Source: a virus. Taken from it: a DNA stretch of 64,000 bases. The notes under the pieces were generated by a model that was not told the origin of the DNA, did not search any database, and saw nothing but the letters and a program-made list of their open reading frames with translations. Location of the stretch: positions 1 to 64,000 of IMG/VR virus record IMGVR_UViG_3300028844_005756; one strand, given 5' to 3'. Shown here in pieces: positions 52,259-64,000 of the stretch (positions are counted from its first letter, which is position 1; every line of letters starts with the position of its first letter). Position numbers and translations under genes: made by a program.

Positions 52259-54598
52259 TCAGAACTGAATACTAATCTTCAAGTCTTCAGTTTGATTTTG
52301 TGAACGAGATACCATACTTCTGTTCTCAACGTAAAGAATTTTACCAGAACCAGGTAACATGCCTGGTGTATTTGCTGTATTAGCAGTAACAGTAAATGCC
52401 TCTACATTTTGAGCATCAGCAGAATGATAACCTAGTGATTTAATTTTAAAATCACCACTTGCTAAAAGTGTACCAAAATCTTTTCTTGGCTTAATTACAC
52501 GGATTCTCTTAGAGAATACATCATGATCTACAATTCTAGCAGTAGCAACTAATAGACCTGTTGAATTTGCATAAATTCCTACATCCATATCAGGTTCAAA
52601 GTTTAATGTATTACCATTCAAACTTCCTAAAGAAGCAGATGTTAAATTAATTCTATAACATTGGTCAGTTTTATAACCTCTAAACAATTCTGTATATGCA
52701 CTTGGATTCATCCAGAGTCTTGTTTGATCTGAAGAATAGGTTCTTGGATTTTTAAGAATACCAATCTTTCTGAATTCGTTACCAACTGTAAATTCATCAG
52801 ATTCTGTACCTTCAAATCTAGCATTAATCATAACATTATGACCACCTAATTCTTCTACAGCATCAAATCCATGTCCTCCTACGGGTGGAATATGTGCATG
52901 TACTGTAGCGGTAGAATAATTATTTGCAGTACCAGTAACCATAGCACTATCTACACGATAATGATATTTACCAGGATTTGTTACTCTTACATCAAGTACT
53001 CTACCCGGTCGTTCTCTATGATATCCAGGTGTTGTTGTATTAAACAATGGTTCAACAATTCCATATGCATTAAATCCATCAATAGGATCTGTTGTCGTAG
53101 TACTTTGATGATTCGCTTCAATTTTTACTCTTGGATGAATTTCAACTACAGCATCCTCATTTACTATCTGTGTTGCTGCAGGAAGACCGGCAACACCAGT
53201 AACACTTGTTCCTATCAAACTTTCTATGGTTGCAGAATCAATTGTAAATTCAATTGTGCCATCTGTAAAGTCAGAACCACTTGTTAATTGTACACCGCTG
53301 ATTGGGAATACATATCTTTTGAATGCATCTCCATTTAGAGTACTATCAGTAGAAGATTTAATTACAACACCATAATCTAACCAAGTATCTAATCCTTTAT
53401 GACCCATGGCTACTAGTCCTGCATCAGGAGTGGCCGTCCATGTTCCGCCAGCATGACTTAAATTATTTGCAAAACTAAACATATTGTAGTGAGTGTTAGA
53501 ACTTAAATCTAGTCCAGCATTTGTTCCTGCTTCTGGATCTGGAAAATCACAATTGTTAACAGTATTCCATACTATTTGGAATGTCAATGAATTTTGAGAA
53601 TCATCGTAATTTACTTGTGCAGAACTTGAACCAAATTGATAATATCCATCTCCACCCTGCATTTCATATCCCTCAACAGTTGAATCATTGGTTTCAACTG
53701 CATACTTATCTACTGTAACATTTAAGATACCGCCTGGAATAGCAGTTGTTTCAACTGTATATTGATCTGAGAAATCATTTTCAATTGTTCCATTTTCTTT
53801 ACGTATTCTTCTTACCGGAATATAAGAAGTGGTAACAAATTTTAATGCTTCTCCAGCATCAATAGTATAGTAATATTTCCATTGATATCCGTCATTATCG
53901 TCATCACCCAAAACCATATAATCTTCACTGATGCCACCATCAGTTACAAAGTTTAAAGGTTCTTGATATGATTTGTGATCCCACAGGTAAACAGTATTGC
54001 CGTTAACACCATTGAAATTTTCAACTTTTCTAAACTTACCAACACCTTGCTTTAAACACTTGTAAATTCTAAATCTTCTATTCACAGTGTGAATCAACAT
54101 GTCATCATAAAATAAGAAAGCAGAACGGTCATCGTAACCATCATATCTTGTACCCAAAGTCCAGTTCCTAAGGCCTGATTGGATCTCTACAGTTCTTTCA
54201 CGCTTAATAACGTGTGATACTTCGCTATCGGAAACTTTCTTAGCAGCAATCATATCATCCCAGTGATTAAAGTGTGAATCTTTTACACTATCAACTGGAA
54301 ATGGAGGATTGTTTTCGTTTAAATTCGGATCAATAGAACCATCCGGTGTATCAGAAGGATTCCACGGAGATACTCTACCTATAAACAAATACATTTGGTC
54401 ATCCAATGCATAGTAAGGTATAGCATTTAGGTTATTAACTGAAGGAGCAGATGTGACACTCAAATCACCATCTAGTCCAGGAGTCATGTCTTCTATTCGT
54501 ATATATCCACCAACACCATGTTCTGATTTTTCTTCAAAACTTTCTTTAAATTGTTTTGCATTACTAACACGAAAAGTATTATGCACTAGTGCGGGCAT
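52259..54598 (-). CDS. baseplate wedge subunit gp8 (expanded)
   Basis: YLFIGR..PW, WDDMIAAKK, YKCL, DGYQWKY, GHGFDAVEELG, SG.ILYVENR, QTEDLKI..QF. Confidence 0.9.
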   Translation of the reverse strand: MPALVHNTFRVSNAKQFKESFEEKSEHGVGGYIRIEDMTPGLDGDLSVTSAPSVNNLNAIPYYALDDQMYLFIGRVSPWNPSDTPDGSIDPNLNENNPPFPVDSVKDSHFNHWDDMIAAKKVSDSEVSHVIKRERTVEIQSGLRNWTLGTRYDGYDDRSAFLFYDDMLIHTVNRRFRIYKCLKQGVGKFRKVENFNGVNGNTVYLWDHKSYQEPLNFVTDGGISEDYMVLGDDDNDGYQWKYYYTIDAGEALKFVTTSYIPVRRIRKENGTIENDFSDQYTVETTAIPGGILNVTVDKYAVETNDSTVEGYEMQGGDGYYQFGSSSAQVNYDDSQNSLTFQIVWNTVNNCDFPDPEAGTNAGLDLSSNTHYNMFSFANNLSHAGGTWTATPDAGLVAMGHKGLDTWLDYGVVIKSSTDSTLNGDAFKRYVFPISGVQLTSGSDFTDGTIEFTIDSATIESLIGTSVTGVAGLPAATQIVNEDAVVEIHPRVKIEANHQSTTTTDPIDGFNAYGIVEPLFNTTTPGYHRERPGRVLDVRVTNPGKYHYRVDSAMVTGTANNYSTATVHAHIPPVGGHGFDAVEELGGHNVMINARFEGTESDEFTVGNEFRKIGILKNPRTYSSDQTRLWMNPSAYTELFRGYKTDQCYRINLTSASLGSLNGNTLNFEPDMDVGIYANSTGLLVATARIVDHDVFSKRIRVIKPRKDFGTLLASGDFKIKSLGYHSADAQNVEAFTVTANTANTPGMLPGSGKILYVENRSMVSRSQNQTEDLKISIQF

Positions 54599-54626: not shown

Positions 54627-57600
54627 TTAAACTTCAATTCGTACAGTCTCTAAAAACTCTTTTCTATTTATGTTCGGATCATTATATTCTGTTTCAAATG
54701 TATTTAGCGCACTAATATTCCAAGTATAAACCTCACTCACAGTATAATTCATTTTTAATGTGGCATGTAAATACGTCTGTTTATCATCACCTTTTCTTTT
54801 TAAATGTTTTTCAATTTCAAATCTTATATAGTCATCAGTAAAAGGTCTAATCACAGTATTTAATAAAAAATTGTCATTCGTTATTCCATTATTTATAGTG
54901 TTTATTTGACTCTCTTTAAATCCAAAGGTGTTATTTATATTTCCTTCTGAATCAAAACTTAAAATTTTCTCAAAATCTACTAAAGATATATCATCTGGAG
55001 TTGTTGAAAATGAATAATCAAAAATTTCTTTTGCAAATAATTCTGCTTGAACTGTAGGTATATTAGATTCTAAAATATAATATTTTAATTTTAAAGGAAC
55101 TTTTTCTGTTATTTCTTCTTTTAAAAAAGTATCAACTTTTTTATCTAATTGAAATAAAAAATTTCTATCTTCAATTTCATTAAATATTTTTGTTAGATTT
55201 TCATTTTGAATTAATTCTATAGTACCATCAAGGATCTTTTCAGTACCAATAATATTTGATACAGTTTCTTTAAATTTAGATTTTCCATCTTGTATATCAA
55301 CAGTTGTGATAGAATATTGAGTTTTTGGAGATACAATAGGTATTGTATTAATAATATCATATCTTAATTTAGTAAGAACTTTTGGTCTTATTTGCTTTTC
55401 TAAAAAGGATTCTGTTATTCTATCATTTAGCGATATTGCACTATTTTCATTATAGACATAAGATTCACTAAAAAATTCAATTTCTGTAGAGTCCATAAAA
55501 GATGTAGAATCTATGAAAGTATGCTTATCATTATACAATATAGATATTTCATCACTAGTTAATTCTTCCATATCAGATATAATGACATATTCTATTTCAT
55601 CATTGTTTGTCAAACCTACATCTACAGTCTTCACAGTATCATATGTGTGTTCGGCTATTTGACTATTTAAATAATTACCAATAATTTCATTTTGTTTATT
55701 AATAATAAAATCTTTTCTTCCAATTTTAGATTTATCAGAAATAAATTCTACAAGATTTTCAAATTCAAGAACAACTTCTTCTGTTGCTATTGTATTATCT
55801 AAAATAGTTGCTTGCTTATCATATACAGTAGTACTTGATGTAATTGCAGTATGTATTAAATCTAAAGTAGGATTATATGTGAATTCTAATTCATTTAGAA
55901 CAGAAACTGTTGGAATATAATCTAAATTATAAGGAACGAGTTTAAACGGTAAATAGTCATCAACAAAATTATTAAAGTATGAAGTAATTCTATCTTCATA
56001 ACTTAATGTGACATTTCTGTCAAGTAATTTGGGATTATGTTCGTATTCATCAATTACAGAGTAAATATCTGTAGTTGCATCTGCAAATGCTGTGTTACCG
56101 TATAATGTTGTAAACGGAACTATATTCACATCAATAGGTACTTTTGGATTGTATGTTATTTCTGGTTCATTCAGTACAGTAGCCGTTGGTACAGTCTCAC
56201 TTTCAAAATCCACAAAAATCTTAGGTATCATATCTAAAGAAAATTTTGTATCCACCCATCTACTAATGACTCTATCTTCTGCAAAAGTTTTGTTTCTATC
56301 AACTATTATAGTATCATCTTCAAATCCATATTCAAATGTTACATCATGAGTTGCGTCCGCAAATGCCGTGTTTCCATATAATGTTGTGAACGAAACTATT
56401 TCTGTATTTGCAAGAACAATTGGATTATATGTAATTTCAGGCTCAGAATGAACTCTTACAGTAGGAATATCACTTAAATTATAATACTTTAATTGTAAAG
56501 GTCTATAGAAACCAAAGAGAGTATTATCTGTCCAGGGTCCTATAATATCACTTAATGAAAATGTTTTATGTCTATCAAGTATTAAATTTTCGTTTTTAAT
56601 TTCAAATTCAAAATCAATATCTTGTGTAGCATCTAAGAATGTTGTATTTCCTGTTAATATTCTATTATCAATATTAATGACTTCCATATTTTCAACATAA
56701 TCTGTAATCGGCACTACTTCAAGATATGCAGTTACAGATGGTAATGTATCTTGACTATATTCACGTATAACCCATGGTCTCATAAAATGTTCTATGATTG
56801 TAAATTCATATGGGTAGATATAATCACTTCTAATTATAAGTTTATTTCTATCAATAATATTGTTTTCAATGTCTTCTTCTATTTCACCCATGATATCAAA
56901 ACTAGAATCTAAAAATGTTGTGTTTCCATAAAGAGATGAAAACAATTCAAAATTAGTGAGTAATTCTGTATTTGCTTGTCTCTCATTTCTTATGTAAGTA
57001 CCATCTATTCTTACTGAAGGTAATTTATCCAGAATATAATCATCCATTTTTATTCTAGAATAATCCTTAATTAAAATAGGAGTCCATGGTAAAATGATAT
57101 CTCCTAAATCTACATACTTATTTCTATCTTCAATTATAATAGGAATTTTTATTTCGGTTTGTGCTTCTGCAAGTTCTAATTCAAAATAAATAGCTGGAGG
57201 CGCTGCATCTGAGAATATGCTGTTTGGATGTACGAGAGGACTTACATCCTCATTTGCTGTCCGTTTACTTATAATAATCGCATCTTGAATAAATGCACTT
57301 GGTATTTTATCTAAAACATAATCTGAAAATTTAACAGGAAGATATCCAGCAATAAATTGCCTTTTCCAATTCTCAAATTGAGTATCTAATGTTATGTATT
57401 TTCTTCTATCTTCTATCTCAAAATGATTTTCTATATCTGTTTTACTAATGACTTCCGTAGAAGAATCTAAAATAACAGTGTTGGCAAAATAAATAGTTTC
57501 TTTGTCTAATACTGTAGATAAATCCTTTGATTTAGGACTTGTATACAAAAAGGGTTCTGACAATGCGCTTGTGGCGGGCATTGTGTCACCCAAATATGGT

Positions 57601-60600
57601 TTATATTTTTTATGGAGATTATAAACTATAAGATTGTTTTTGTAATCAACAATTTTTTCATCAAAATTAAAAAATAAATTTCTATTTAAAACATCAACAA
57701 ATATTTTACGATTTACATCTGTTTCTAAAGGTGTTACATCAGTTACTGCAGGGTTATCACCTCCACTTACTAGAGTGGACAATGGATCAAATCCAGATTC
57801 TGATATACCAACAAATTTATGAACAGGTGGGGGTATTACGGTAAAGTCTTGTTGAATTGATTTGCTAGGTAATGATGGGTCTAAACTGAAAGGTTCAAAT
57901 GCAAAATTATTAATGTGATTCACATGCACACTCATAAAATCAATATCACCAGAATTTACATCATTAGCAACTATGGTTGACCAAATTATAAAATTATCTT
58001 CGTTGTATATTGGTTTTAAGTTATCCAAGTCTTCAATATTTTCAAAAGTAACTAGAGTATCAACATTAAAATTTTCGCTTTCTTGAAATAATTTTCTTTC
58101 AGGTAGTAAACTATCTTCATCAAATGTAAAATTATCATAACTATCAAAAGTTAATTCATCCGAATCAAAATAAGAAGATGGTTTTATACCATATGCGCTT
58201 TTGTTTGTAGAATTCACAAAGGTATAATATATAACAGGGTCAGTATCACTACTTGAATCTGCAAAATTTAATCTTGTAATTACATATCTTAAATCAGGTT
58301 CTTTTAATTGTAATGAATCTATGTGGTGATAATTTAAAATTTTATCATCTTCTACTTCAACACTTGGTAATCCAGATTCTGTTCCTGGATGCGCATTTAT
58401 ACTTCCTAATAATATTAGAGAACTTACTCTATTCTTTTCAAACTCCTCAAAGAAATTTAAAATTACAACTTTTGCTTTTGGTTCAAATTGATGGTCAGGA
58501 CAAAGAACTGTTTCAATATCTGCAATAGATATTTGTGTTATTTTCTTATCATCATCTGAATTTATTAGAATCGCTTCTCGGAAAATCTTAGGTATTTTTC
58601 CACGTATTGCAGGTATTCTGTTTTCAAAAGACAGTGTTGATATTCTATTTTTGGGTTTATCCATAGCCGGCTGAATATCAAACTTTGCAGCAGTAGACTC
58701 AATATTTAAAAATACCGCACTATTATTTTCTTCATCAGATGATTGAATAGAAAGTGGTAATATTTGTTCATCAATATTAATAACAACATGGAGGGGAACA
58801 TCTGTTACTGAGCGTATTGCAGTATCAGTAAAAGAGTCATTGGATAATGTGCTTGTACTTTCAAAGAATAAAAAGTCTTTTATATTAATAGAAAATGAAG
58901 TAAATGTTGTCGGTCGTTCAGTTAATTTATGTTCAAATGTATCTAATACAGTTTTGAATTCTTGCTGATAAGCTAATGTTAATACTACATCTACTTCATC
59001 TGTAATTACATCACTATTCTGGAAAGTCGTCCGTAGGGGTTCCACTGTCAACGGCCCTTGGGGTGAGGGTTGTGTTGTTGGCTGTGTTTCCGCTGAAGTT
59101 AAAAAAAAAATTTCCGAAGGATTTACTATCGGATAAGGGGTTGAATCTACTGTATTATAGTCAAATATTATTGTATTTGACCTTGGTTGCATTATACTAT
59201 AACTTTCAAGGTCTATGGCTACATTTTCATAATCTACATTAATGAATGTTTTTTCTATCTTCGTTACTTTTGGTAAAGTATAATTATTTTCAATAAATGA
59301 TTGCCAACTAATTACTTCTAATATACCTTCATCTACTTCAAAAGGAACTTTAATTGTATCTTGATTATTCTTCAATGTCAGACAGTATAATAATCCTGTG
59401 TATGGAACTTCAATCTTATCTATTTCTTTATCAATATCTCTCAATTCCATTATTGCTCTTTTACCCGTACCGGCTAATGTTTCATCAGGTACTGCTAAAA
59501 AGTCTAGTTCTGTTGGTGGTTTTGTTTTTGATGATAGTTTTCGTCCTTTAATTATTTTATTTGATGTAACTAAAGCTAATTCTTGGTCTGGAGAAACTGT
59601 TATAGACACACTTGAATGATCTGTATACTGATGCATTATTCCATTATATTCTCTTGTTGCTATACTATCTGGCAATTGCCAAACTATAACACCATCTTCT
59701 TTCACATTAGCAACATGCATATAGGGTTCTAGATTTTCAAAAGTTACCCAACCATAATCTCTTGTAAGTATTTCTGCATTTGGTAAATAAGAACCTTTGC
59801 CGGATAATGTATTTCCTGAAACTAATGGTAGATATTCATTTCTTTCTGTATCAGAAAATTCTATTTCTGCGTTGCTAAATTGTTGTAAATCAGAACTAAA
59901 TCTTGGTTCATATAAATCGGTAAATGGATCTCTTACTACAATATATCCACCCTTTGCAATATCTGGCACATGTTCAAATACACGTTCTACTCTTACTCTA
60001 AAATTATAAATTGTTCTATCTGCATCTAAAGAACCAATTGCATTTTTTCTATATCCAATTACATCAGCAATCCAGTTTGCTTCATCTTCAACATTTATAA
60101 TTTTCACAAAAGATTGTACGGCTACAATACCATCATATAGTCTTGTATCAGTGATAATTGAATTTTTCTCATTTGTTTTTCCATAATCATCAAAATCTCT
60201 AAATGAATTTTCACTAGGTTTTGATATAATATCTTCTATGAAAAAACGAAATCCTTCAAAAATCGGTGCTATTGCATTTACTTCTATTTCTGGATATTCA
60301 GATGTTGCAATCTCCTCATTGTGAATAAATTCATTTTCTAATTCTATTTGATTAATAACATCACCAATAGTTGCATCTGCAAAATTTAATCTTTCTACTT
60401 CTATATGCTCAAATATTTCAGCAATTATGTAGCCACGGCTGTCTATTTCTATTTCATGCAATTCATGTGTTTTTATTCTAAAGTCAAGTTCAAGTTCAAA
60501 TTTATTTCTTATAAAATGTAAAAATCCTGCAGGATGTAATTCATCTAAAAGTAAAGGTTCTATTAAACTTGCTGGTATTTTAGTACGTATTTCATATGAA

Positions 60601-62612
60601 TAATTTTGATAATAATAACCATCATGAATATATTTGTTTGATGATAATTTACTTCTGTTGTCTAAGAAAGAATCAAAAGAATCAATGAACAACCCTTCTT
60701 CATATTCATATTCTGATTTCAAACCGTGTGCGATATCATCTTGATTAAACACTCTTTCTTCTGGATTGTGAATAAATTCAAATACATCATCTGATTTAGT
60801 CATTAAACCCATTTGAAGTGTTTTAATCTGAGCTACACCATCACCTAAAACACTTTCCAACTTAGCACTATTTGCAAGAGGATTAATCTTTATTAAATCT
60901 TTTATTTCTAAATTTAAAGTTGTGCCAAAGGGCAACCCTATCTCACTGAAATCATTTAGAATTGTATCTAATTTTATTTGATTGTTATCAAATCTTTCAT
61001 TTTGTCCTAATTCAATTTCAACAAAAGTATCCGTTTCTAAATCTTTTACTGACCTTAGTGTTATAAATCTTTTAACTTCTACGTCTTCACTGAGTATATC
61101 CAAGTCACTCAAATATATTTGTTCTTCATCAGCATTTAGAGTTACATCTCCAATACAAATAGCTTCATTAAAATCTCCAGGTGTACTTGTGCCACCTTTC
61201 ATATAAACTAAAGTATCATTCTGAATATATGCAGTATTTGCTTCGTTATTATCAAATATAACATCAAAATAGTTCAATAACTCTGCTTGTGGTAAAGGAT
61301 TTTTTGCAACAACAGGTGGAGCAAATTCATATCCTAATCCGGAATCATCAAATGTAATTTCTTTTATACCACCCATTTGAAAATCAGTAACAACATCACT
61401 GGGTAATTCTTTTAATGGAGTAGCATCTCTAAACAATATGGAATTTTCATAAACTTCATCTAGTAATGTTTCATCCTCATAAAAAGATACTGGTCTATTT
61501 TTTAATATATTGTAAAAAGAATTGAAATAAGTAGTAAGAGTTGGATTTACTTCAATTTCTGAAACATACGCACTTGCTGTGTATTCTGCATTTGTAAATG
61601 CATTGTCAAAAACAATCGGGTCACCCACACGATAGCATAAACCGGGGTCATTTATTTTTATATTAGTAATAGAATGTTTTTTAAGTTTTGTAATTTCTGC
61701 TCTACCATCACCATAATTAAACATATCACCGACTTTATGACCAATACCACCATCTGTTATTTTTAAGCCAGTAATTGAATTTTTTATTACACCTTTTACT
61801 GCTTCTAATCCTGTGGTAATATCATATCCTACTATAATTTCATTTTCTTTAAAAGTTCCATTAATGTAAACTAAATCAAGAAAGGCCTTTGTGGTGTTGT
61901 TTTGATTTTTAGTTATGATGTCACGACATATAGCAGATGCTTTTGATTTAGGTGCATAAATGCGAGTTTGATTAAATTTACTTATGCTAGAATTATATTC
62001 AATTTGTATTAAATTTTGTTCGTAATAACCACTATCAGAAAGTCTCAGTATATCTACTTTCGGATAATATAATTCTATAATATCATCAAAGAATATTCTA
62101 AAAAACCAATAGTAAGAATTTTCAGTATCTTTGTTTTTATAATAATCTAATATTTTTTTGGTAAGAATATTTGGGTCTAACCTACGAAAAATACTATGAT
62201 CAAGAGAAACATTCTTTTTAAAGTATTTCTGAAAGACTGTGAGTGCGGTTTCGTAATTAGTATTTTCCTCTATATCCTGAGCATATTGATGTATATTCTT
62301 ATATAATTTTTTAATAAAATATATTTCACCGCTAATACCATTTACTAATAATTCATTTCTATAAAAATTATTCGTTTCTGTTTCATAATCAAAATATACT
62401 CTATCTTTAGTAACTATTTTTACAATGGCTTTTGCTTTAGACAGAGAACCATATATGATGTCACCCACGGATAATTTTTTATTATCTGTAAGAAGTATTA
62501 CTGATGATTCTAAAAAATTATAATATTCCTCAATAAACTTCACAAAGTGAGGATATTGCTCTAAAAAATAATTTGGAATATGACTTTCAACCAATTCTTT
62601 AGGAGTTGTCAT
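54627..62612 (-). CDS. baseplate wedge subunit gp7-like giant protein with Hint domain and repeat tail
   Basis: YP.F..F...YY.FLE, FFRIFF...YYPK, IHDGYYYQNYSY, LHPAG; gp6-gp7-gp8 order. Confidence 0.8.
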   Translation of the reverse strand: MTTPKELVESHIPNYFLEQYPHFVKFIEEYYNFLESSVILLTDNKKLSVGDIIYGSLSKAKAIVKIVTKDRVYFDYETETNNFYRNELLVNGISGEIYFIKKLYKNIHQYAQDIEENTNYETALTVFQKYFKKNVSLDHSIFRRLDPNILTKKILDYYKNKDTENSYYWFFRIFFDDIIELYYPKVDILRLSDSGYYEQNLIQIEYNSSISKFNQTRIYAPKSKASAICRDIITKNQNNTTKAFLDLVYINGTFKENEIIVGYDITTGLEAVKGVIKNSITGLKITDGGIGHKVGDMFNYGDGRAEITKLKKHSITNIKINDPGLCYRVGDPIVFDNAFTNAEYTASAYVSEIEVNPTLTTYFNSFYNILKNRPVSFYEDETLLDEVYENSILFRDATPLKELPSDVVTDFQMGGIKEITFDDSGLGYEFAPPVVAKNPLPQAELLNYFDVIFDNNEANTAYIQNDTLVYMKGGTSTPGDFNEAICIGDVTLNADEEQIYLSDLDILSEDVEVKRFITLRSVKDLETDTFVEIELGQNERFDNNQIKLDTILNDFSEIGLPFGTTLNLEIKDLIKINPLANSAKLESVLGDGVAQIKTLQMGLMTKSDDVFEFIHNPEERVFNQDDIAHGLKSEYEYEEGLFIDSFDSFLDNRSKLSSNKYIHDGYYYQNYSYEIRTKIPASLIEPLLLDELHPAGFLHFIRNKFELELDFRIKTHELHEIEIDSRGYIIAEIFEHIEVERLNFADATIGDVINQIELENEFIHNEEIATSEYPEIEVNAIAPIFEGFRFFIEDIISKPSENSFRDFDDYGKTNEKNSIITDTRLYDGIVAVQSFVKIINVEDEANWIADVIGYRKNAIGSLDADRTIYNFRVRVERVFEHVPDIAKGGYIVVRDPFTDLYEPRFSSDLQQFSNAEIEFSDTERNEYLPLVSGNTLSGKGSYLPNAEILTRDYGWVTFENLEPYMHVANVKEDGVIVWQLPDSIATREYNGIMHQYTDHSSVSITVSPDQELALVTSNKIIKGRKLSSKTKPPTELDFLAVPDETLAGTGKRAIMELRDIDKEIDKIEVPYTGLLYCLTLKNNQDTIKVPFEVDEGILEVISWQSFIENNYTLPKVTKIEKTFINVDYENVAIDLESYSIMQPRSNTIIFDYNTVDSTPYPIVNPSEIFFLTSAETQPTTQPSPQGPLTVEPLRTTFQNSDVITDEVDVVLTLAYQQEFKTVLDTFEHKLTERPTTFTSFSINIKDFLFFESTSTLSNDSFTDTAIRSVTDVPLHVVINIDEQILPLSIQSSDEENNSAVFLNIESTAAKFDIQPAMDKPKNRISTLSFENRIPAIRGKIPKIFREAILINSDDDKKITQISIADIETVLCPDHQFEPKAKVVILNFFEEFEKNRVSSLILLGSINAHPGTESGLPSVEVEDDKILNYHHIDSLQLKEPDLRYVITRLNFADSSSDTDPVIYYTFVNSTNKSAYGIKPSSYFDSDELTFDSYDNFTFDEDSLLPERKLFQESENFNVDTLVTFENIEDLDNLKPIYNEDNFIIWSTIVANDVNSGDIDFMSVHVNHINNFAFEPFSLDPSLPSKSIQQDFTVIPPPVHKFVGISESGFDPLSTLVSGGDNPAVTDVTPLETDVNRKIFVDVLNRNLFFNFDEKIVDYKNNLIVYNLHKKYKPYLGDTMPATSALSEPFLYTSPKSKDLSTVLDKETIYFANTVILDSSTEVISKTDIENHFEIEDRRKYITLDTQFENWKRQFIAGYLPVKFSDYVLDKIPSAFIQDAIIISKRTANEDVSPLVHPNSIFSDAAPPAIYFELELAEAQTEIKIPIIIEDRNKYVDLGDIILPWTPILIKDYSRIKMDDYILDKLPSVRIDGTYIRNERQANTELLTNFELFSSLYGNTTFLDSSFDIMGEIEEDIENNIIDRNKLIIRSDYIYPYEFTIIEHFMRPWVIREYSQDTLPSVTAYLEVVPITDYVENMEVINIDNRILTGNTTFLDATQDIDFEFEIKNENLILDRHKTFSLSDIIGPWTDNTLFGFYRPLQLKYYNLSDIPTVRVHSEPEITYNPIVLANTEIVSFTTLYGNTAFADATHDVTFEYGFEDDTIIVDRNKTFAEDRVISRWVDTKFSLDMIPKIFVDFESETVPTATVLNEPEITYNPKVPIDVNIVPFTTLYGNTAFADATTDIYSVIDEYEHNPKLLDRNVTLSYEDRITSYFNNFVDDYLPFKLVPYNLDYIPTVSVLNELEFTYNPTLDLIHTAITSSTTVYDKQATILDNTIATEEVVLEFENLVEFISDKSKIGRKDFIINKQNEIIGNYLNSQIAEHTYDTVKTVDVGLTNNDEIEYVIISDMEELTSDEISILYNDKHTFIDSTSFMDSTEIEFFSESYVYNENSAISLNDRITESFLEKQIRPKVLTKLRYDIINTIPIVSPKTQYSITTVDIQDGKSKFKETVSNIIGTEKILDGTIELIQNENLTKIFNEIEDRNFLFQLDKKVDTFLKEEITEKVPLKLKYYILESNIPTVQAELFAKEIFDYSFSTTPDDISLVDFEKILSFDSEGNINNTFGFKESQINTINNGITNDNFLLNTVIRPFTDDYIRFEIEKHLKRKGDDKQTYLHATLKMNYTVSEVYTWNISALNTFETEYNDPNINRKEFLETVRIEV
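59301..59792 (-). other. atypical mini-intein / Hint domain in gp7 (aa 941-1104)
   Basis: SYLPNAEILT..GW (block A), YNG, VSPDQ (block B), YTGLLYCLTL (block F), WQ|S (block G). Confidence 0.7.
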
Positions 62613-64000
62613 GTATCAAATAACTCCGCTTTTGCTAAATTAGAAGAAGTTGATGACCTATCTATAAATGCAGAAGGTGTTATATAAATGTCATCAATAG
62701 AAATTGTTAGAATTTGTTCTTTAGATGGTATAATAATAAATTCATCACATTGAATTTCAAATGTCATTTCTGATGAATCTTCTCTTATATATGTTGGTGA
62801 AAATCCTTCTAATATAAAAATGCCAGAATCATAATCTATTTTACCTATATTTTCTTTTAGTGTAAATTCTACGTCTGAACCGGATACGTTTATTGTGAAA
62901 ACTATATCAACGCCTGTATATGTTGAATTTTCTTTTAGATAACAATTTGATATTAAATTATTATTATTATCAATATAATCAAATCTACTTGCAGTTAAAG
63001 AACCTTTTTTAATCTTGTTATTAAAATTTATATTATAATAAACTCCAATCCCAACTTCAATATTTCTTTTTTTGTATAAATTTATAGTTAAATATGAACC
63101 CATGAAATATTGACTTATATCATCTACAAGTTTAGTAATATTTGCTAATTGAAAATTACTATAAAATTTTAATAAATTATTTTTAGAATAATCAAATATA
63201 ACATTCTTCACATTATCTACAATTTCTATTTGATTCATATTAATGTCTAAGGAATCATAAACTACATTAGCATTAATTTTAATATAAGTATATTCGGGAT
63301 TAACAATTCTCGGTAGTATGGTAATTACATTTAATTGGTCAAGTCTTGACTTTATGTAATCTATTTCATAATTAGATAACAATGCTCTATTTTTTGGTTT
63401 AATCGCACAAAATACACTACCATACAACGGAGGAGTATTCTTTTCTCCACCCCAAACAGAAATTGATTCTATGAAAGGAAAATATTTCATCAAAATAATT
63501 TGATAATCTTTTTCAGTGACTGTGCGATTTTGACTGAAATATAATTTTCTTGCATTATTTCTTATATCATCGGCATTTTCTTCATCTTCTCCTTGTGAAG
63601 AAAATTGAATAGTTTCTATTAAAAACGTGTTAACAAAGTCGTTTTTATTTTCAATATCAAAAGTTACACACTCATTAGCATCTTCACCTGAAGTAACCAA
63701 ATAATTTAATTCAATTACATTATTATTTTTAATAATTTTTCCTAAAATTCCATCTCCAAAAATTATTTGATATTTTCCATTATAATTTTGTTCTATGTAA
63801 AATATTTCGGAATCTTCTGTAAGTAATGTAATATCAAATACTCTGTTGTATTTTGTGCGCAATCGTTCAAGTTCATTTTCTCTAACATGTACTGTAAGGT
63901 ATGTTAAATCTATATCTTTACTAGAAATTTCAAATTTATTTTCTAATAATAAATTATTTACAACTATTTCTTCTGATATTAAAGTGCCTTGAGTGAGTGT
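62609..64000 (-). CDS. baseplate wedge subunit gp6, 5' end beyond the window
   Basis: FGDGILG, QNRTVT..DY, WGGE...P.YG.V, IDY..G; frame open to position 64000. Confidence 0.92.
   Translation of the reverse strand, partial: TLTQGTLISEEIVVNNLLLENKFEISSKDIDLTYLTVHVRENELERLRTKYNRVFDITLLTEDSEIFYIEQNYNGKYQIIFGDGILGKIIKNNNVIELNYLVTSGEDANECVTFDIENKNDFVNTFLIETIQFSSQGEDEENADDIRNNARKLYFSQNRTVTEKDYQIILMKYFPFIESISVWGGEKNTPPLYGSVFCAIKPKNRALLSNYEIDYIKSRLDQLNVITILPRIVNPEYTYIKINANVVYDSLDINMNQIEIVDNVKNVIFDYSKNNLLKFYSNFQLANITKLVDDISQYFMGSYLTINLYKKRNIEVGIGVYYNINFNNKIKKGSLTASRFDYIDNNNNLISNCYLKENSTYTGVDIVFTINVSGSDVEFTLKENIGKIDYDSGIFILEGFSPTYIREDSSEMTFEIQCDEFIIIPSKEQILTISIDDIYITPSAFIDRSSTSSNLAKAELFDT

Follow-up and report, generated by a model that had tools for sequence, protein, structure and literature searches.

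An intein-derived Hint domain, probably retained as a structural module, in the giant gp7-like baseplate wedge protein of uncultured T4-like phages

Inteins are regarded as selfish elements that either keep splicing or are removed, since a non-splicing copy normally destroys its host protein. What, then, accounts for an intein-like segment that lacks the block B His and lies inside a phage baseplate protein? This question is posed by a gene in the window, by which we mean the complete stretch of 64,000 nucleotides analysed here (positions 1 to 64,000 of IMG/VR virus record IMGVR_UViG_3300028844_005756; the whole record spans 85.8 kb, with a G+C content of ~30% and an estimated completeness of 34%). 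The gene, an open reading frame of 2661 amino acids (aa) at 54627-62612 on the minus strand, as are all parts of it given below, encodes a gp7-like baseplate wedge protein. Its residues 941-1104 (164 residues; 59301-59792) form an intein-derived Hint domain that has the appearance of a mini-intein relic without endonuclease. We consider it probable that this domain no longer splices and has been retained as a structural module of the virion.

An earlier note, made from the DNA letters alone, had described the segment as a non-canonical Hint domain, and the residues on which it relied are all found in place. Ser941 (59790-59792) occupies intein position 1 and is preceded by Gly940 at position -1. 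S-P-D-Q (residues 1007-1010; 59583-59594) stands in place of T-x-x-H, leaving Gln at block B position 10 (B:10), and Cys1077 (59382-59384), within Y-T-G-L-L-Y-C-L, occupies block F position 4 (F:4). Trp1103-Gln1104 (59301-59306) form the putative domain end, followed by Ser1105 (59298-59300) as the putative +1 residue. The N-terminal half with blocks A and B (residues 941-1020; 59553-59792), delimited by alignments to real inteins, has a mean identity of 40% among orthologs. It is joined by a variable short linker of ~43 residues (1021-1063; 59424-59552), the least conserved part with 16% identity, to the block F region (1064-1083; 59364-59423), which is collinear with real inteins and is reached by the structural alignments. 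In related inteins, a LAGLIDADG endonuclease occupies the place of the linker. The noted absence of an endonuclease is borne out by the ~43-residue gap before block F and by family hidden Markov model (HMM) searches, which detected no endonuclease family in the domain. The remaining residues, 1084-1104 (59301-59363), constitute a degenerate block G region. Because these last ~20 residues are poorly modelled and lack an intein profile match, the C-terminal boundary between Gln1104 and Ser1105 is a putative one, placed by spacing.

The descent of the segment is revealed by its sequence relatives. An exhaustive phmmer search of 1.84 billion representatives with residues 801-1250 (E-values are library-wide) returned 18 proteins, several of which are giant gp7-like proteins or fragments thereof. 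The remaining matches cover only residues ~940-1020, with E-values from 1.3e-8 to 9e-4, and nearly all of them are intein-bearing proteins that combine LAGLIDADG_3 with Hint_2, Hint, or Intein_splicing at the corresponding places. The genes hosting these inteins encode D12 methylase, portal, PolB, and metallophosphoesterase proteins. In the alignments, Cys1 of the inteins lies opposite Ser941, V-T-P-[DN]-H opposite V-S-P-D-Q, and the block F motif Y-x-G-x-V-Y-C-[VC]-T-V-P-N opposite Y-T-G-L-L-Y-C-L-T-L-K-N-N. Comparison of a profile of the gp7-family domain with one of nine related inteins by hhalign gave a probability of 99.1% (E 7e-19, 93 columns) and a second, collinear short match at block F (E 3.8e-4, probability 36%), while the V-R-R-N-G-K-x-x-W-x-G-N ends of the related inteins found no hhalign profile match in block G. 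ESM Atlas features likewise point to Intein_splicing and PT-HINT clusters. The segment is thereby confirmed as a genuine relative of inteins.

The closest known counterparts are the LAGLIDADG class 1 inteins of portal, D12 methyltransferase, family B DNA polymerase, and metallophosphoesterase genes (P0011, P0012, P0014, P0015, P0017-P0021), whose N-terminal splicing region is ~30-37% identical to the window domain over ~80 residues. Both share E-I-L-T-R-x-x-G-W-x-x-F-x-x-L, V-A, W-x-x-P, and Y-x-G-x-M, the block F motif Y-x-G-x-x-Y-C with its unusual Cys at F:4, and Gly at position -1. The inteins, which are 336-407 aa long and contain LAGLIDADG_3, have kept Cys1, T-P-x-His, the endonuclease, and a C-terminal V-R-R-N-G-K...G-N followed by Ser. 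In contrast, the window domain has Ser1, Gln for His, an unrecognisable block G, and no endonuclease, and it resides in a structural gene rather than in an enzymatic or portal gene. In the representative search, a 207-aa protein (P0022) was also observed whose intein-like N-terminal half lacks Cys1 and begins with I-G-Y-S-E-D-T-M-I-L-T. It carries V-T-P-N-Q, that is, Gln for His as in the gp7 domain, followed by an endonuclease-like segment, and could represent either a further degenerate derivative of an intein or a homing endonuclease of the free-standing kind.

Curated models do not recognise the domain. None of the Pfam families Intein_splicing, Hint, Hint_2, and PT-HINT matches the segment even at E ≤ 10, and no Hint match emerged from PHROGs or PDB sequence searches of the segment and its homologs. 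A search of the 85.8-kb record with PF14890 returned nothing, and the record holds no paralog of the domain. Further, a tblastn search with the segment found no counterpart in 50,697 cultured phage genomes, and a single-sequence scan of viral contigs with the segment found nothing. The domain is too diverged for curated HMMs; since such models miss relics of this kind, similar fossils may be under-counted. Of the searches against Hint folds that the earlier note had suggested as a check, those by structure, phmmer, and hhalign succeeded and those with curated HMMs failed.

The fold was predicted with AlphaFold2 from a 22-row alignment of gp7-like homologs and real inteins. The model has a predicted local distance difference test (pLDDT) score of 73.6, with mostly 83-94 for residues 941-1083; the last 30 residues are poor, and residues 1084-1104 fall below 55. 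In this model, residues 941-1083 adopt the horseshoe-shaped all-beta Hint fold. All top 50 Foldseek matches in the PDB are inteins, bacterial intein-like (BIL) domains, or hedgehog. VIA-align ranks 6zgq first (Z 14.1, root mean square deviation (rmsd) 2.1 over 129 residues) and finds 84 chains at Z ≥ 8. Several of its alignments pair model residue 11 (Ser941) with intein residue 1, others start a few residues upstream, and most stop at residue 1083, thus covering block F. Sequence and structure comparisons therefore agree with the earlier reading of a Hint domain in a baseplate structural protein. Among predicted viral structures, the named matches are mostly intein hosts (RNA polymerase, ribonucleotide reductase, terminase, portal, and polymerase), and none of the named matches bears a baseplate or tail name. 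The baseplate is hence a host-gene class absent from the named top matches in the viral structure library. The literature search, of partial coverage and hence weak evidence of novelty, turned up no account of Hint domains in baseplate or tail proteins.

The modelled domain shares the horseshoe beta fold of residues 941-1083 with the AceL NrdHF class 3 split intein (6zgq), the Npu DnaB (4o1r) and Ssp DnaB (1mi8) inteins, and hedgehog (1at0), at Z 12-14 and rmsd 2.1-2.5 over 121-129 residues. Sequence identity to these proteins is 11-17%, and the window domain differs from them by its missing catalytic residues and a block G hairpin of low confidence. The predicted fold is also that of the BIL domains 2lwy and 6y75 (Z 11.5-12.1). 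Like BIL and pretoxin Hint domains, the window domain belongs to a large protein and separates its conserved N-terminal part from its hypervariable C-terminal part, and like type B BILs it has no similarity to intein block G (PMC4031507). However, BILs keep the N-terminal Cys or Ser together with the His of block B and cleave, and the window domain matches neither Pfam Hint_2 nor PT-HINT. Its nearest sequence relatives are true inteins, which speaks against a BIL or PT-HINT identity.

Can a domain of this kind still splice? Its orthologs, collected by protein searches (P0003-P0010) and from IMG/VR and JGI contigs (L001-L011, L015-L026), represent ~11 lineages of uncultured T4-like phages and are 26-49% identical to one another. 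Position 1 is Ser in the window, P0006, P0008/L021-26, and L019, but Ala in P0005/L016-20, P0007, and L015, Gly in P0003/L025 and P0010, and Phe in L010/L011. B:10 is Gln in nine of the ~11 lineages and Thr in two; none has His. Cys at F:4 occurs in 9 of 11 lineages, and P0010 and L010/L011 lack it yet keep the domain. The residue aligned with Gln1104 is variably Gln, Val, Ser, His, Asn, or Ala, with Asn in a single lineage. All nine related real inteins, on the other hand, have preserved Cys1, His B:10, the terminal Asn, and Ser or Cys at +1. Measured against class 1 inteins, the window copy thus possesses the position 1 nucleophile (Ser941), which Ala, Gly, or Phe replaces in orthologs, lacks His B:10 (Gln1010), and has Gln1104 followed by Ser1105 where Asn, or rarely Gln or Asp, followed by Cys, Ser, or Thr belongs, if the boundary placed by spacing is right. 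No residue of inteins is more conserved than His B:10. The pseudo-intein Arth_1007 of Arthrobacter sp. FB24 lacks this His along with other signature residues and failed to splice (PMC3196547). Arth_1007 is, however, a pseudogene with an extein of only 66 aa, whereas the window domain lies in an intact essential virion gene and is conserved across ~11 diverged lineages under purifying selection.

The domain has travelled with its host protein. A gp6-like gene precedes the gp7-like gene wherever upstream DNA is available, the domain occupies the same site in all lineages, and 12 of 12 complete giant homologs in IMG/VR carry it at this place. The identities of the domain and of the gp7 core rise and fall together (r = 0.75; 21 pairs, not independent of one another). 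In a pair from an Ala1 lineage, the ratio of nonsynonymous to synonymous substitution rates (dN/dS) in the domain is ~0.24, a value obtained from just 17 nucleotide differences, compared with 0.11-0.17 elsewhere in the gene. These sequence comparisons show vertical co-inheritance of the domain with the host protein and purifying selection on it. The insertion-free homologs that the earlier note wished to see did not come to light. Hint matches are absent from 66 of 79 IMG/VR gp7-like loci, and the gp7 proteins of Cr30 and Synechococcus phage S-H9-2 are also Hint-free, but these Hint-free homologs equally lack the sequences that flank the domain. No homolog with contiguous flanks but without the domain was found among the protein-search and IMG/VR homologs: a search for longer homologous proteins gave nothing, and the only shorter one with the upstream flank is a fragment, P0013, which stops at a contig end. 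Since the flanks are never seen without the domain, the classical test by intein-free alleles is uninformative here.

We propose the following course of events. The ancestor would have been a class 1 intein that started with C-Y-x-x-D-T-E-I-L-T, had V-T-P-[DN]-H as its block B motif and Y-C-V-T-V-P-N as that of block F, and ended in G-N before Ser. It would have belonged to the clade whose present-day members carry LAGLIDADG endonucleases and reside in phage portal, methylase, PolB, and phosphoesterase genes. In the ancestor of one clade of uncultured T4-like myoviruses, it seems to have become fixed in a clade-specific C-terminal extension of gp7. Its endonuclease, His B:10, and terminal Asn would then have been lost, as would the nucleophile at position 1 in most lineages. 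The domain would now neither splice nor cleave. As it appears unable to splice and is nevertheless conserved and selected, it must belong to the mature protein, presumably as a compact beta-rich side-knob with a structural role in the baseplate periphery. In the Hint fold, both ends adjoin, as known from solved inteins. The flanking gp7 chain would therefore run on nearly uninterrupted, which would make a retained knob tolerable. For an intein-derived domain stripped of its chemistry, carriage by an essential virion protein through deep divergence would be an unusual fate, and the baseplate protein would offer a case from nature in which an intein has become an ordinary domain. The earlier note had offered as alternatives an auto-processing switch, by which the C-terminal ~1550 aa are spliced or released, or an inactive relic. 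The variable catalytic residues, the missing His, the co-divergence, and the purifying selection speak for the relic, whereas the switch finds no comparative support.

Several observations weigh against a non-splicing relic. The window copy keeps Ser at positions 1 and +1 and possibly a terminal Gln, with which some inteins are able to splice (PMC4031507). The dN/dS estimate depends on few substitutions, as given above. Moreover, real inteins were part of the AlphaFold2 alignment, which means that the model and the sequence evidence are not independent for the N-terminal half; the block F half of the model depends on the gp7 family alone. Finally, nine of 11 lineages share Cys F:4 and nine of 11 share Gln B:10, a conservation that could reflect residual chemistry rather than packing.

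Autoprocessing of the window copy, be it by way of Ser941 and Gln1104 or by a class 3-like route through Cys1077, is nevertheless unlikely. A living domain in which Cys1077 (or Ser941), assisted by the conserved Gln1010, still forms a (thio)ester at the bond between Gly940 and Ser941 is a rather improbable case. Its outcome would be either a cut that frees the gp7 core from the 1700-aa Hint-plus-repeat part or, during baseplate assembly, a hedgehog-like transfer of the core to another nucleophile. If true, it would mean a new, His-independent Hint chemistry in virion morphogenesis.

Little credit attaches to either of the two routes when taken by itself. The window copy might be a slow autoprocessing element of class 1 type, in which an N-O acyl shift by Ser941 leads either to splicing via Ser1105 and cyclisation of Gln1104 or to N-terminal hydrolysis that frees a 940-aa gp7 core. 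All three residues are present, a few inteins work with a terminal Gln (PMC4031507), and the domain sits at the border of the conserved and the variable part of the protein. Yet B:10 is Gln, and tested inteins neither splice nor cleave once the His is lost; Trp stands in the penultimate position; and block G is poorly modelled and has no detectable similarity to its intein counterpart. Orthologs with Ala1 or Gly1 keep the domain under constraint. The protein family consequently does not depend on position 1 chemistry, and we hold this route to be quite improbable.

Equal doubt, if not more, surrounds the class 3-like route, in which Cys1077 attacks the bond before residue 941 irrespective of position 1 and the thioester is hydrolysed, giving N-terminal cleavage, or passed to another nucleophile. 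It would explain why Cys F:4 persists in 9 of 11 lineages while position 1 varies between Ser, Ala, and Gly, as in class 3 inteins (PMC2807308). Also in its favour, the best structural match, 6zgq, is a class 3 intein, though by only ~1-2 Z units over class 1 inteins and hedgehog. However, related real inteins possess Cys F:4 alongside Cys1, and the Cys is thus ancestral to the clade rather than an adaptation; besides, P0010 and L010/L011 keep the domain without it. Class 3 inteins are marked by the WCT triplet of Trp B:12, Cys F:4, and Thr G:5 (PMC2807308). Beside Cys1077, the window domain has Leu1012 at B:12, Ser1102 at G:5 (if the boundary is right), and Gln1010 instead of the essential His B:10. 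With Trp B:12, Thr G:5, and His B:10 all absent, identity as a class 3 intein was rejected. That the Hint resemblance is a chance pattern in an unrelated beta-rich spacer is hardly credible: Pfam, PHROGs, and PDB sequence searches found no Hint match and a first AlphaFold run with four sequences was uninformative (pLDDT 34), but the library-wide matches to real inteins are significant, hhalign reaches 99.1%, VIA-align returns Hint folds only, up to Z 14, and the ESM Atlas features lead to Intein_splicing and PT-HINT clusters.

If the Hint domain does not detach the C-terminal part, recoding may. A run of ten T residues (T10) lies 64 codons beyond the domain, at codons 1168-1171 (I-F-F-L; 59101-59110, minus strand). 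It is a candidate site of -1 slippage; the -1 frame that follows has its stop at 59014-59016 (minus strand). The run is conserved in the DNA of four other lineages (L015, L016, L019, and L025) despite differing flanking codons. The -1 frame remains free of stops over 29-31 codons in each of the five lineages and terminates at a common position. It contains a shared motif, L-[RT]-P-[RG]-A-[IV]-D-S-G, and its conservation exceeds that of the 0 frame in 10 of 10 pairwise comparisons. The P0008 clade (L021, L024) keeps the domain and has no T10 run. The run is likely a site of programmed -1 frameshifting or of transcriptional slippage, either of which would yield a short isoform of ~1199 aa, terminated shortly beyond the Hint domain. 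The conserved run and -1 frame thus suggest that the C-terminal 1490 aa are made optional by recoding and not by Hint-mediated cleavage. The Hint domain marks the end of the conserved part of the giant gp7 and, together with the slippery run, would help to define its isoforms.

The identity of the host protein follows from its family matches and its neighbours. The N-terminus of the 2661-aa protein matches Pfam PF23786 Baseplate_wedge (33.9 bits, cut-off 27) and phrog_17744, a baseplate wedge subunit (E 4.9e-32). The gene lies between a gp6-like gene (62609-63862; phrog_219) and a gp8-like gene (52259-54598; phrog_438). By these matches and neighbours, it is a giant wedge subunit of the T4 gp7 type. 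No gp7 structure was found by PDB sequence and profile searches with the whole protein. The nearest cultured relatives are Synechococcus T4-like phages and Caulobacter phage Cr30, which match in the core only; the Cr30 gp7 (767 aa) is collinear with residues 7-700 of the window protein and ends there. Residues 1-940 (59793-62612) comprise the conserved gp7 core (~1-720) and a clade-specific linker (~720-940) that terminates in a conserved V-S-G-N-x-L-x-x-x-G directly before the Hint domain, and their mean identity to six homologs is 39%. The C-terminal part, residues 1105-2661 (54630-59300), begins with S-F-I-E-N-N-Y-T-L-P-K and is variable (mean identity 18%, gaps 31%); the domain thus occupies the border of the two parts.

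Residues ~1709-2430 of this C-terminal part (window ~55323-57488, minus strand) contain at least five tandem repeats of exactly 92 aa each. They show G-N-T-[TA]-F at 1896, 1988, 2080, and 2172, with D-R-N-K and I-P-[ST]-V motifs after it, and are 30-36% identical from repeat to repeat. Across the 79 IMG/VR gp7-like loci (L015-L093), between ~12 and ~2700 residues follow a conserved Y-Y-Y-Q...L-H-P-A-G-F motif. Owing to this range of extension lengths, the baseplate wedge protein seems to serve as a base to which peripheral modules of a highly variable kind are attached. Among the same loci, the Hint domain is confined to the clade of the window, and other long extensions are devoid of it. In L006 (Ga0213866_10005767), the domain-bearing gp7-like frame opens only at 2014, while the gp6-like gene ends at 365, a sign that the N-terminal part may contain a frameshift or a sequencing error.

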